60,886 nucleotides of DNA from Escherichia coli (lineage in GTDB: Bacteria > Pseudomonadota > Gammaproteobacteria > Enterobacterales > Enterobacteriaceae). Both the position numbers and the translations under genes were made by a program. Positions 1-4,676 of the stretch are shown one piece after another; positions within the stretch are counted from its first letter, which is position 1; the number at the start of each line of letters is the position of its first letter. Below the pieces are notes generated by a model. It worked only from the letters and a program-made list of their open reading frames with translations, did no database searches and had not been told where the DNA came from. The DNA lies in the NCBI RefSeq assembly GCF_003334385.1, contig NZ_QOWN01000028.1; one strand, given 5' to 3'.

Positions 1-3000
1 ATATCACCGGCGACAGCGCAACGGTGGATAACAAGGGCACCATGACCGTCACCGATCCGGAGTCCATCGGTATCCAGATTGACGGCGACCAGGCCATCGT
101 CAATAACGAAGGCGAGAGCACTATCACCAATGGCGGCACCGGCACTCAGATCAACGGTAACGACGCCACCGCGAATAACAGTGGAAAAACCACTGTTGAT
201 GGAAAAGATTCCACGGGTACCAAAATCGCGGGCAATATCGGCATTGTAAATCTGGATGGTAGCCTGACTGTTACAGGCGGTGCGCATGGTGTTGAGAACA
301 TTGGTGACAACGGCACGGTTAACAACAAAGGAGATATTGTTGTTTCCGATACTGGATCGATTGGCGTGCTCATCAACGGTGAGGGGGCAACAGTATCCAA
401 TACGGGTGATGTTAACGTTAGCAATGAAGCGACAGGGTTCAGCATCACAACCAACAGTGGGAAGGTTTCGCTGGCAGGCAGTATGCAGGTTGGCGATTTC
501 TCGACCGGGGTAGATCTTAATGGCAACAATAACAGCGTGACGCTGGCGGCAAAAGATCTAAAAGTGGTCGGGCAGAAAGCGACGGGCATAAACGTTTCTG
601 GCGATGCGAATACAGTGAATATCACTGGTAACGTTCTGGTTGATAAGGATAAAACCGCAGACAATGCGGCGGAATATTTCTTCGATCCATCCGTGGGTAT
701 CAACGTTTACGGCAGTGATAATAACGTGACGCTGGATGGAAAGTTAACTGTTGTATCAGACAGTGAGGTTACTTCTCGTCAGAGTAATTTATTTGATGGC
801 AGCGCAGAGAAAACGTCAGGTCTGGTTGTGATTGGCGATGGCAATACCGTTAATATGAATGGTGGACTTGAACTGATTGGAGAGAAAAACGCGCTTGCAG
901 ATGGGTCGCAGGTTACTTCCTTGCGCACAGGATATAGTTATACCAGCGTTATTGTCGTTAGTGGTGAGTCGTCGGTATATCTGAATGGAGATACGACAAT
1001 CAGCGGAGAATTCCCTCTGGGGTTTGCCGGGGTTATTCGGGTACAGGATAAAGCTTTGCTGGAAATTGGCAGTGGCGCTACGCTAACAATGCAGGATATT
1101 GACAGTTTTGAACATCATGGGACAAGAACCCCAGAACTTACTTATGCTGATTCCGGTGCGAAAATTGTTAATAAAGGTACTGTTGAAATTCAGAATTTAG
1201 GTTTTGCTTTTGTTACTGGTGAAAATACAACAGGTATAAATAGTGGCACGATCTCGTTATTACAAAATGGTAAAGATCCGGCACCGTCTCCCATTGTTTT
1301 ACTGGCTACTAACGGAGGGAGCGCCACTAATGCAGGTACGATCACAGGTAAAGTGACGGAACAACATAGCGTATTTAACAAGTATTCAACGGGCACATCG
1401 AATTCATTTATTTTTAATAACGATGTCAGTAGCATAACAGGGTTAGTCGCTCAATCGAATAGCACAATTATCAATACTGACAGCGGCATCATTGATTTGT
1501 ATGGTCGTGGTAGTGTCGGCATGCTTGCTATAGCAGATTCAACAGCAGAAAATCAGGGTAAAATTACACTGGATTCTATGTGGGTAGATGCAAATGACAC
1601 TACCGCAATGCGAGATATAGCTAGCAACAGCGCCATTGACTTCGGTACAGGTGTGGGAGTTGGTACTGATAGTTATAGTGGTGCAGGGAAAAATGCAACA
1701 GCAATTAACCAATTGGGCGGTGTTATAACTATTTATAACGCCGGCGCAGGTATGGCGGCCTATGGCGCCAGCAATACAGTTATTAACCAGGGGACGATTA
1801 ACCTCGAAAAAAATGGTAATTATGACGATAGTCTGGCAGCAAATACTCTGGTAGGGATGGCTGTTTATGAGCATGGTACTGCTATCAACGACCAGACGGG
1901 TGTTATCAATATCAATGTTGGTACTGGTCAGGCGTTTTATAACGATGGCACAGGAACAATTGTTAACTATGGTACAATCTGCACTTTCGGCGTGTGCCAA
2001 TCGGGGAATGAGTACAATAATACAGATGATTTCACCTCACTGATCTATACCGGTGGCGATACGATTACACGAAGCGGAGAAACTGTAACGCTAAATAAAT
2101 CTGCTGCTGTGACTGATAAGCTGGCTGGGAATGTTGTTAATAGCGGAACGCTTTCCGGTGATCAAATTACGGTATCAAGCGGTCTTCTGGAAAATACCAG
2201 CGGTGGCATCATCAATAACTTAGTAAAACTTGACAAGGGTGCCGTCATTAAAAATGCCGGGGTGATGACGAATAACGTCGATGTTAGCGGTGGAATCCTC
2301 AATAATGCCGGAGAAATGACTGCGCAAATTACCATGAATGCTGGTGCTGATAGTTCGTTAGTGAACAACACCGGAACCATCAATAAAATCGTGCAGAACG
2401 CGGGGGTATTCAATAATAGTGGCAGTGTAACAGGGCGGATGATGTCGGCTGGCGGGGTCTTTAATAATCAAACTGACGGGGCGATTATGAGAGGTGCTGC
2501 GCTGACAGGTACTGCAGTGGCAAATAACGAAGGAACCTGGAACCTCGGAAGTAGTAGTGAGGGTAACAACACCGGGATGCTGGAAGTTAATAATAATTCA
2601 GCTTTCAATAACCGCGGCGAGTTTATTCTTGATAACGACAAGAATGCTGTGCACATCAACCAGTCCGGTACGCTTTATAATACCGGTCACATGAACATCA
2701 GTAATTCTTCCCACAACGGAGCCGTTAATATGTGGGGCGGAAATGGTCGTTTTATCAATGACGGAACGATTGATGTTTCTGCGAAGTCACTGGTAGTCAG
2801 CGCTAATAATGCCGGCGATCAGAATGCCTTCTTCTGGAACCAGGATAACGGGGTCATCAACTTCGATCACGACAGCGCCAGTGCCGTGAAAGTCACCCAC
2901 AGCAACTTTATTGCCCAGAATGACGGCATCATGAACATCAGCGGCACCGGTGCTGTGGCTATGGAAGGTGATAAGAACGCGCAGCTGGTTAACAATGGCA

Positions 3001-4676
3001 CCATCAACCTCGGTACCGCAGGCACTACTGACACGGGTATGATCGGTATGCAACTCGATGCCAACGCCACGGCGGATGCGGTAATCGAAAACAACGGCAC
3101 CATCAATATCTTCGCCAATGACTCGTTTGCATTTAGCGTACTGGGTACAGTAGGTCATGTGGTTAACAACGGCACGGTGGTGATTGCCGATGGGGTTACG
3201 GGTTCTGGACTGATCAAGCAGGGCGACAGCATCAATGTTGAAGGTATGAACGGTAACAACGGTAATAGCAGCGAAGTGCATTATGGCGACTATACGTTGC
3301 CGGATGTGCCGAAGCCCAATACGGTTAGTGTAACGTCGGGAAGTGATGAGGCTGGTGGCAGCATGAACAACCTCAACGGCTATGTCGTCGGTACCAACGT
3401 TAACGGCAGCGCCGGGAAGCTGAAGGTTAACAATGCCAGCATGAACGGCGTGGAGATTAACACGGGCTTTACCGCTGGTACGGCAGACACCACTGTGAGT
3501 TTTGATAACGTAGTGGAAGGTAGCAACCTGACCGACGCTGACGCCATCACCTCAACGTCCGTGGTATGGACTGCCAAAGGCAGCACCGATGCCAGCGGTA
3601 ACGTTGACGTCACCATGAGCAAAAATGCCTACACCGATGTGGCAACAGATGCCTCGGTGAATGACATCGCGAAAGCACTGGATGCGGGTTACACCAACAA
3701 CGAACTGTTTACCAGCCTGAACGTCGGCACGACTGCTGAACTGAACAGTGCTCTGAAACAGGTCAGCGGTAGCCAGGCGACCACGGTATTCCGCGAAGCG
3801 CGCGTGTTAAGCAACCGCTTTAGTATGCTGGCAGATGCCGCGCCGAAAGTGGGTAACGGTCTGGCGTTCAACGTTGTCGCGAAAGGCGATCCGCGTGCCG
3901 AGTTAGGTAATAATACCGAATACGACATGCTGGCATTGCGTAAAACTATCGACCTGAGCGAAAGCCAGACGATGAGTCTGGAGTACGGTATCGCTCGTCT
4001 CGATGGTGATGGTGCGCAGAAAGCGGGTGATAATGGCGTTACAGGCGGTTATAGCCAGTTTTTTGGCCTGAAACATCAGATGTCGTTCGATAACGGCATG
4101 AACTGGAATAACGCCTTGCGTTACGACGTTCACAACCTTGACAGCAGCCGCTCGATTGCATTTGGCAACACGAACAAAACGGCTGATACCGACGTGAAAC
4201 AGCAGTACCTGGAGTTCCGCAGCGAAGGGGCGAAGACTTTCGAACCGAGCGAAGGACTGAAGGTTACGCCATATGCGGGTGTAAAACTGCGTCACACACT
4301 GGAAGGTGGCTATCAGGAGCGCAATGCCGGAGACTTTAACCTGAATATGAACAGTGGCAGCGAAACGGCGGTGGACAGCATCGTCGGGCTGAAACTGGAC
4401 TACGCAGGTAAAGACGGCTGGAGCGCTAGCGCTACGCTGGAAGGCGGGCCGAACCTGAGCTACGCGAAGAGCCAGCGTACGGCAAGCCTGGCAGGCGCAG
4501 GCAGTCAGCACTTTAACGTCGATGACGGTCAGAAGGGCGGCGGCATCAATAGCCTGACAAGCGTCGGCGTGAAGTACAGCAGCAAAGAAAGTTCGCTGAA
4601 TCTGGATGCGTACAACTGGAAAGAGGATGGCATCAGCGATAAAGGCGTGATGCTGAACTTCAAGAAAACGTTCTAA
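1..4676 (+). CDS. ydbA: Autotransporter (YdbA-like), 5'-truncated by the window edge; Gly/Asn/Thr/Ser-rich repetitive passenger domain plus C-terminal beta-barrel translocator
   Basis: ORF track 24..4676 (1550 aa); the frame stays open upstream to position 3, so the gene starts outside the window. The product is dominated by recurring VNN-G-I-type motifs typical of beta-helical passenger domains. Last ~300 aa are rich in alternating aromatic/hydrophobic residues and end in a C-terminal Phe (..FKKTF), consistent with an outer-membrane barrel. Confidence 0.8.
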   Translation, partial: ITGDSATVDNKGTMTVTDPESIGIQIDGDQAIVNNEGESTITNGGTGTQINGNDATANNSGKTTVDGKDSTGTKIAGNIGIVNLDGSLTVTGGAHGVENIGDNGTVNNKGDIVVSDTGSIGVLINGEGATVSNTGDVNVSNEATGFSITTNSGKVSLAGSMQVGDFSTGVDLNGNNNSVTLAAKDLKVVGQKATGINVSGDANTVNITGNVLVDKDKTADNAAEYFFDPSVGINVYGSDNNVTLDGKLTVVSDSEVTSRQSNLFDGSAEKTSGLVVIGDGNTVNMNGGLELIGEKNALADGSQVTSLRTGYSYTSVIVVSGESSVYLNGDTTISGEFPLGFAGVIRVQDKALLEIGSGATLTMQDIDSFEHHGTRTPELTYADSGAKIVNKGTVEIQNLGFAFVTGENTTGINSGTISLLQNGKDPAPSPIVLLATNGGSATNAGTITGKVTEQHSVFNKYSTGTSNSFIFNNDVSSITGLVAQSNSTIINTDSGIIDLYGRGSVGMLAIADSTAENQGKITLDSMWVDANDTTAMRDIASNSAIDFGTGVGVGTDSYSGAGKNATAINQLGGVITIYNAGAGMAAYGASNTVINQGTINLEKNGNYDDSLAANTLVGMAVYEHGTAINDQTGVININVGTGQAFYNDGTGTIVNYGTICTFGVCQSGNEYNNTDDFTSLIYTGGDTITRSGETVTLNKSAAVTDKLAGNVVNSGTLSGDQITVSSGLLENTSGGIINNLVKLDKGAVIKNAGVMTNNVDVSGGILNNAGEMTAQITMNAGADSSLVNNTGTINKIVQNAGVFNNSGSVTGRMMSAGGVFNNQTDGAIMRGAALTGTAVANNEGTWNLGSSSEGNNTGMLEVNNNSAFNNRGEFILDNDKNAVHINQSGTLYNTGHMNISNSSHNGAVNMWGGNGRFINDGTIDVSAKSLVVSANNAGDQNAFFWNQDNGVINFDHDSASAVKVTHSNFIAQNDGIMNISGTGAVAMEGDKNAQLVNNGTINLGTAGTTDTGMIGMQLDANATADAVIENNGTINIFANDSFAFSVLGTVGHVVNNGTVVIADGVTGSGLIKQGDSINVEGMNGNNGNSSEVHYGDYTLPDVPKPNTVSVTSGSDEAGGSMNNLNGYVVGTNVNGSAGKLKVNNASMNGVEINTGFTAGTADTTVSFDNVVEGSNLTDADAITSTSVVWTAKGSTDASGNVDVTMSKNAYTDVATDASVNDIAKALDAGYTNNELFTSLNVGTTAELNSALKQVSGSQATTVFREARVLSNRFSMLADAAPKVGNGLAFNVVAKGDPRAELGNNTEYDMLALRKTIDLSESQTMSLEYGIARLDGDGAQKAGDNGVTGGYSQFFGLKHQMSFDNGMNWNNALRYDVHNLDSSRSIAFGNTNKTADTDVKQQYLEFRSEGAKTFEPSEGLKVTPYAGVKLRHTLEGGYQERNAGDFNLNMNSGSETAVDSIVGLKLDYAGKDGWSASATLEGGPNLSYAKSQRTASLAGAGSQHFNVDDGQKGGGINSLTSVGVKYSSKESSLNLDAYNWKEDGISDKGVMLNFKKTF

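Follow-up and report, generated by a model that had tools for sequence, protein, structure and literature searches.

Does ydbA, a split pseudogene in the laboratory strain K-12, survive as an intact autotransporter gene in wild Escherichia coli, and is a copy that stops at the edge of a draft contig one of these intact genes? This question is raised by a 60,886-nucleotide (nt) stretch of E. coli contig NZ_QOWN01000028.1 (RefSeq assembly GCF_003334385.1), hereafter the window, whose first 4676 nt lie within ydbA. We conclude with high confidence that these 4676 nt are the 3' three quarters of ydbA, a type Va autotransporter of the BigA/YdbA family, in the ancestral allele of wild phylogroup-A E. 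coli near K-12, free of insertion sequences (IS). The gene, the BigA_* Pfam families, the names given by the NCBI annotation pipeline (PGAP), the IS disruption in K-12 and full-length copies in phylogroup A are already known. The biological weight of the locus is small, and what makes it mildly interesting is recurrent independent inactivation and variation in repeat number. The portion of the gene under study is as follows:

1-4676, + strand: 3' portion of ydbA, 4676 nt, corresponding to gene nt 1388-6063 (codons 464-2020 plus the stop).

Frame 3 of the + strand is free of stops from nt 3 to nt 4673 and closes with TAA at 4674-4676, which gives 1557 sense codons. The other two forward frames hold 88 and 167 stops within the first 5200 nt, so the openness of frame 3 is far beyond chance. 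Neither an IS element nor a frame disruption is present in 1-4676. A preliminary description made from the letters of the window had identified this portion as ydbA, an autotransporter, with a frame continuous from the window edge to a C-terminal beta-barrel and with no IS inside it, and all of this was upheld, including the barrel, which matches PF03797. Its count of 1550 codons is correct when started from the first GTG at nt 24, but the whole open frame has 1557. The same sequence is found in intact genes of wild phylogroup-A strains: their YdbA (WP_001326908.1 / WP_220531950.1, 2020 amino acids, aa) has exactly the C-terminal 1557 aa of the window product, and over the 4676 nt there are 0 differences to the intact 6063-nt ydbA of CFSAN061772, N18-04097, PEC1009, and NCTC9041. 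The expectation of a very large surface protein, should the copy be intact, was thus confirmed as to size (at least 2020 aa).

In K-12 the gene (b4492) occupies the same locus, paaY-ynbG-ydbA-pdxI-ydbD, and is a pseudogene split by IS2D and IS30C, in agreement with the preliminary description, which spoke of insertion sequences. This agrees with the description of ydbA as an autotransporter pseudogene of MG1655 interrupted by insD1/insC1/insI1 (PMC4951805). The window was compared by megablast with 5426 complete E. coli genomes, and the matches to K-12 strains were 100% identical but broken into three pieces across 7259 bp. On the MG1655 reference (NC_000913.3), window 1-1131 corresponds to 1466779-1467909, window 1127-1181 to a 50-nt "fragment 2" plus the duplicated target bases, and window 1179-58567 to 1470516-1527904. 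Those 50 nt are all the ydbA sequence that separates the two elements in K-12. The point occupied there by IS2D (1331 bp, 5-bp duplication) falls between window nt 1131 and 1132, and that occupied by IS30C (1221 bp, 2-bp duplication) falls after nt 1181. Both target sites are unoccupied in the window:

1127-1131: IS2D target AACCC at codon 840 of the full gene, present once here and twice in K-12, where IS2D duplicated it.
1180-1181: IS30C target CT, a single copy here and duplicated by IS30C in K-12; codon 856.

Since both sites are empty single copies, the window holds the pre-insertion allele. This contradicts the earlier assumption that any interruption would have to lie upstream of the window, and the positions of IS elements in a reference strain therefore need to be mapped rather than assumed. 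Next we reconstituted the K-12 gene in silico by removing both IS together with one copy of each duplication. The result was an open gene of 6063 nt with 0 differences to window 1-4676 and 0 differences to the intact ydbA encoding WP_001326908.1 (2020 aa; N18-04097, PEC1009, and NCTC9041). A contiguous IS-free junction was found in 849 of the 5426 complete genomes, and full-length ydbA has been reported in about 42% of phylogroup-A genomes (PMC4951805).

The window begins within the gene, and the reason is a property of the assembly. Intact ydbA contains an exact repeat of 123 nt (gene nt 1048-1170 equals 1342-1464, at an offset of 294), and window nt 1 corresponds to gene nt 1388, at a distance of exactly 77 nt from where this repeat ends:

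1-77, + strand: last 77 nt of the 123-nt exact repeat, the signature of a contig end in a de Bruijn assembly with k=77.

In the public assembly collection, 44 blocks contain the exact 1557-aa partial product, on NCBI draft contigs of 58-62 kb, and draft contigs L024-L027 start at the same base as the window. The same model of assembly predicts a partner contig that ends at gene nt 1124 and encodes YdbA aa 1-374. The exact 374-aa product was found in 49 blocks, on contigs with the order paaK-paaX-paaY-ydbA' ending at gene nt 1124. The distance of nt 1 from the repeat end, the shared contig starts and the partner contigs together identify the edge as an assembly artefact. The other end of the window lies 143 nt past the vgrG stop, in the vgrG-rhs repeat region, and has the same last base as contigs L019-L022. 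The window is effectively a complete short-read contig with a repeat at either end, and the truncation of ydbA at its edge is technical (a short-read assembly break in a repeat) and not biological. More generally, a window edge in a repetitive adhesin gene may be a de Bruijn contig boundary, and truncation there is not to be taken for biology.

The 123-nt repeat belongs to a larger tandem array, the tail of which opens the window:

1-227, + strand: tail of a 294-nt (98-aa) tandem array detected with Tandem Repeats Finder, 3.2 copies in the 6063-nt allele.

The copies at -294 and -588 match window 1-241 with 88% identity. At the protein level, self-BLASTP of the sequence cut into chunks showed that degenerate 98-aa repeats continue to window nt ~650, where identity has fallen to 37-42%, and that the rest of the passenger has internal similarity of 20-35% only. 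Other tests were less informative. Self-BLASTN of 1-4676 gave no DNA self-matches, an uninformative result given that BLAST drops matches contained within the identity match; whole-protein self-BLASTP likewise returned nothing, the contained high-scoring pairs being culled, which leaves the chunked protein comparison as the valid test. Autocorrelation of the passenger produced weak peaks at lags 26, 43, and 49 (z at most 4) without a clean single periodicity. About 66% of the residues are G, N, T, S, V, A, or D, and the entropy of the composition is 3.88 bits. The passenger had been called highly repetitive and of low complexity, which is right for its biased composition and for the 294-nt array up to nt 227, but does not extend to the remainder, as the repeats fade by ~650. 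Antisense open reading frames (ORFs) of 60-202 aa were also seen within ydbA; such ORFs are to be expected on the strand facing a frame rich in G, N, and T, and no RefSeq genome viewed has them annotated.

Repeat number differs among strains. The ydbA of LF3-1 (932-7876 of its locus) measures 6945 nt, that is, 6063 plus 3 x 294, with three extra repeats. The copy number of the 98-aa repeat therefore varies between strains, and the protein of the source strain may differ in size from 2020 aa. Accordingly, the missing 5' part, which lies on another contig, amounts to 1387 nt, or more if the source has additional repeats. The 123-nt exact repeat may drive this change in copy number (3 versus 6 repeats) and so alter the length of the protein stalk described below.

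Searches with Pfam profiles, AlphaFold models and Foldseek delineated the following parts of the encoded protein:

228-3218, + strand: passenger, predicted right-handed beta-helix; modelled for nt 2163-3218 only, the rest being assigned from composition and weak internal repeats.
3219-3359, + strand: low-confidence linker, probably disordered, between the beta-helix and BigA_beta; predicted local distance difference test (pLDDT) below 50 at model residues 353-399.
3378-3629, + strand: BigA_beta sandwich, PF25783 (Pfam E 2.9e-25).
3783-3839, + strand: predicted alpha-helical linker; in the AlphaFold model, residues 186-204 form a helix immediately ahead of the first strand of the barrel.
3861-4673, + strand: autotransporter beta-barrel translocator of about 12 strands; PF03797 (E 9.1e-19) at nt ~3993-4583, AlphaFold strands at model residues 212-480.

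The model of the last 482 aa, built on a 31-sequence alignment, reached a pLDDT of 83.4 and consists of a helix followed by a barrel of ~12 strands. Its Foldseek matches were EstA, AaaA, EspP, NalP (TM score 0.70 normalised to NalP), BrkA, and Hbp. For window nt 2163-3650, the model had a pLDDT of 80 overall and ~90 over residues 1-350, with regular strands of 3-5 residues, and Ag43, pertactin, EspC, Hap, and IgA1 protease came top in Foldseek. A sequence search of the PDB gave no match at E 0.01 or better, and a search of PHROGs gave no match. The protein terminates in ...MLNFKKTF, the final F being nearly invariant in the 31-homolog alignment. The features of a type Va autotransporter seen in the window are thus a predicted 12-strand barrel, a predicted helical linker, a modelled beta-helical passenger and an aromatic residue at the C-terminus, as in the beta-signal of outer-membrane proteins.

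The remaining architecture was read from relatives. Two further Pfam domains, BigA_3rd and BigA_4th, are precomputed on the identical 1557-aa product, and BigA_N (PF25784) occupies aa 140-220 of full-length relatives, upstream of the window. In relatives, identical alleles start with MQRKTLLSACIALALSGQGWA/AD, a sequence that on inspection resembles a Sec signal. From the N- to the C-terminus, full-length relatives carry this signal-peptide-like MQRKTLLSACIALALSGQGWA, an acidic Pro-rich linker, BigA_N, the 98-aa repeats and the long passenger, and then the disordered linker, the BigA_beta sandwich, the helical linker and the barrel. In full-length YdbA the signal peptide is followed by a hydrophobic stretch at aa ~68-88 and by an acidic, His- and Pro-rich low-complexity linker at aa ~89-140 ahead of BigA_N, an N-terminal layout that is unusual for a type Va passenger. 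The PGAP name of intact YdbA is "BigA/YdbA N-terminal beta-barrel domain-containing protein". We considered whether this name denotes a second membrane barrel and rejected the idea, BigA_N being an 80-aa soluble domain that forms a small soluble barrel.

Because the protein follows the type Va paradigm, a secretion route can be proposed by analogy. YdbA would be exported by the Sec system, using the signal peptide that appears in identical alleles, after which the beta-barrel assembly machinery (BAM) would insert the C-terminal barrel into the outer membrane. The beta-helical passenger would then be threaded out through the barrel and would remain at the cell surface, forming a long adhesin-like stalk, the length of which would vary with the number of 98-aa repeats. 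YdbA is accordingly described here as a putative adhesin, by analogy with other autotransporters.

The closest named relative is BigA of Salmonella enterica (NF033178), which shares the architecture of BigA_N, BigA_3rd/4th, BigA_beta and a PF03797 barrel. Over the last ~480 aa the two proteins are 72-78% identical, whereas the passengers are divergent and the 98-aa tandem repeats are an E. coli-specific feature of YdbA. Against the exception-type model NF033178 (auto_BigA) the match was partial: a full-length relative scored 1126.7 bits and the window part 963.6 bits, with a curated cutoff of 3400; scores below this cutoff make YdbA a family relative and not BigA itself. In the classification of PMC3419190, BigA joins an AIDA-I-like passenger to a NalP-type (group 6) barrel; in the Salmonella literature it is named an adhesin by annotation only. 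Homologs with 50-80% identity were found across the Enterobacterales, including Salmonella BigA, Citrobacter, Trabulsiella, E. albertii, Chimaeribacter, and Budvicia. Self-associating autotransporters of the Antigen 43/AIDA-I type appear to share the beta-helical passenger and type Va logic, with Ag43 crystal structures giving the best, if weak, Foldseek scores for the modelled passenger. Unlike them, YdbA has an additional BigA_beta sandwich and a disordered linker before the translocator, and it has no significant sequence match to solved structures. We also noticed that RefSeq/PGAP labels an 8604-nt ydbA homolog "EntS/YbdA MFS transporter" in several genomes, including SA186 (7102 onward), apparently through a mix-up of the names YbdA and YdbA.

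Whether the gene is intact in the source strain depends on its 5' end, where the main alternative lies: ydbA could be a pseudogene through an upstream lesion (an IS3 at gene nt 113-116, an IS1, a frameshift or a stop), which would make the 1557 codons a recently orphaned 3' fragment. Such lesions are real. IS3 sits at gene nt 113-116, after codon 38 and just past the signal peptide, in six genomes (M217, ESY002, 27992, SX45, MB31, and MLI106K4), IS1 and nonsense lesions are also known in relatives, and 347 of the 2425 genomes having the 5' region do not carry a contiguous copy of it. In an evenly spaced sample, the IS3 type was about as frequent as the intact type among carriers of this allele other than K-12, and the IS-split K-12 copy shows that a disrupted gene can retain sequence otherwise identical to the intact one. 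The upstream caveat of the preliminary description was therefore legitimate, IS3 and IS1 lesions in relatives being located there. Evidence within the window nevertheless speaks for an intact gene through one position:

1816, + strand: lineage marker, G in the window and A in 6/6 sampled IS3-disrupted genomes.

The G is shared with K-12 and with five intact alleles. In a census of the 61-mer around nt 1816, 870 genomes matched exactly and 346 deviated, the latter number being nearly equal to the 347 broken 5' ends; the IS3 in ydbA may be a single insertion event in a large lineage that now comprises ~346 genomes. The sequence at this position places the window most likely outside the IS3 lineage, and a single SNP (single-nucleotide polymorphism) at nt 1816 is thus usable for predicting the IS3 status of a 5' end that is not in view. 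Moreover, an intact 6063-nt ydbA coding sequence is annotated in 5/5 of the complete genomes nearest to the window over its first 25 kb, and partner contigs running from the start codon to aa 374 are as common as contigs of the window type (49 versus 44 blocks). With the 1816A marker of the common IS3 lesion absent, ydbA is probably intact in the source strain, and an upstream lesion is unlikely.

The other two explanations carry almost no weight. The allele might come from K-12 itself, or from an engineered IS-free derivative in which IS2 and IS30 are missing through laboratory excision, as would fit the 0 differences between window 1-4676 and K-12 ydbA with the IS precisely removed and the MG1655 synteny across 57 kb, IS609 included. 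This origin is ruled out, to near certainty, by 17 SNPs to MG1655 in a gapless alignment of window 1179-58567, by the retention of IS609, which an IS-free construct would have lost, and by what lies beyond 58567, where an intact type VI secretion system (T6SS) vgrG and the beginning of an rhs gene stand in place of the rhsE pseudogene; in addition, identical contigs exist in many draft assemblies of wild isolates. Nor do we give any real credence to the long frame being a compositionally biased, repeat-driven ORF that is open by chance or through collapse of repeats during assembly, and not a functional gene. The amino-acid composition is indeed biased and the left end does lie in a tandem repeat that short reads do not resolve, but 1557 open codons stand against 88-167 stops in the other frames, the identical sequence is present in closed long-read genomes, the product carries curated Pfam and NCBIfam domains and has homologs of 50-80% identity across the Enterobacterales, and its folds are predicted with confidence.

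Several observations weigh against reading the window as an intact type Va autotransporter gene of a wild strain. The window holds only the 3' 77% of the gene and lacks the promoter as well as the first 1387 nt with the signal peptide, and the link between 1816A and IS3 comes from six sampled genomes plus matching totals rather than from a genome-by-genome census. Close relatives carry lesions of their own: N9 and PEC422 have IS1 insertions in ydbA, and in KE58 a near-identical allele carries a nonsense change (A to T) in codon 1026, at the position matching window nt 1689. None of the 5426 complete genomes is identical to the window, the best having ~4 mismatches in 25 kb and ~17 in 20.9 kb (estimates from bit scores). 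The fold matches of the passenger are weak (E 3e-5 to 1e-1, with low TM scores). Finally, we found in the literature no experiment on YdbA expression, display or adhesion, and the transcription data from K-12 concern the pseudogene only.

The lesions themselves form a pattern: alleles that are otherwise 100% identical carry at least four independent ones, namely IS2 plus IS30 in K-12, IS3, IS1, and the nonsense mutation. It is conceivable, though in our judgement improbable, that ydbA is under recurrent and recent selection for loss in phylogroup-A E. coli. If this were true, expression of so large a surface protein would carry a cost in some niches, for instance by offering a target to phages or to immunity, and ydbA would be a contingency locus.

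Downstream of ydbA, a spacer precedes pdxI (ydbC, 4884-5744). A scan of 4500-5000 for terminators and promoters found none, the spacer having no consensus terminator, and an Rfam scan of the whole window gave no match inside 1-4676. Over the rest of the window, collinearity with K-12 stops at 58567, and four of the 17 SNPs are non-synonymous (ydbD L2F, ydcA P24L, ydcK T42A, and patD G332S). The features concerned are:

4677-4883, no strand: intergenic spacer ahead of pdxI.
5812, 22410, 30989, and 46798 or 47234: amino-acid-changing SNPs relative to MG1655.
58635 (annotated start) to 60743 (stop): T6SS tip gene vgrG, 702 aa, behind which an rhs gene begins; the corresponding place in K-12 is taken by the rhsE pseudogene alone.

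For vgrG, no record was found for the ORF counted from its first ATG (714 aa), whereas the 702-aa product of the annotated start was found. IS609 (insQ, a TnpB-type putative RNA-guided endonuclease, plus a yncK remnant) lies at window 33824-35571, at the K-12 site and with 2 SNPs; unlike IS2D and IS30C, its insertion is older than the split from K-12. The gapC pseudogene at 20376-21376 is identical to the K-12 copy. Rfam matches were obtained for RydC (92 bits) at 22106-22169 on the minus strand and for sok (RF01794, 110 bits) at 22729-22880, also on the minus strand; the latter is the hokB/mokB strand, whereas RefSeq has sokB on the plus strand.

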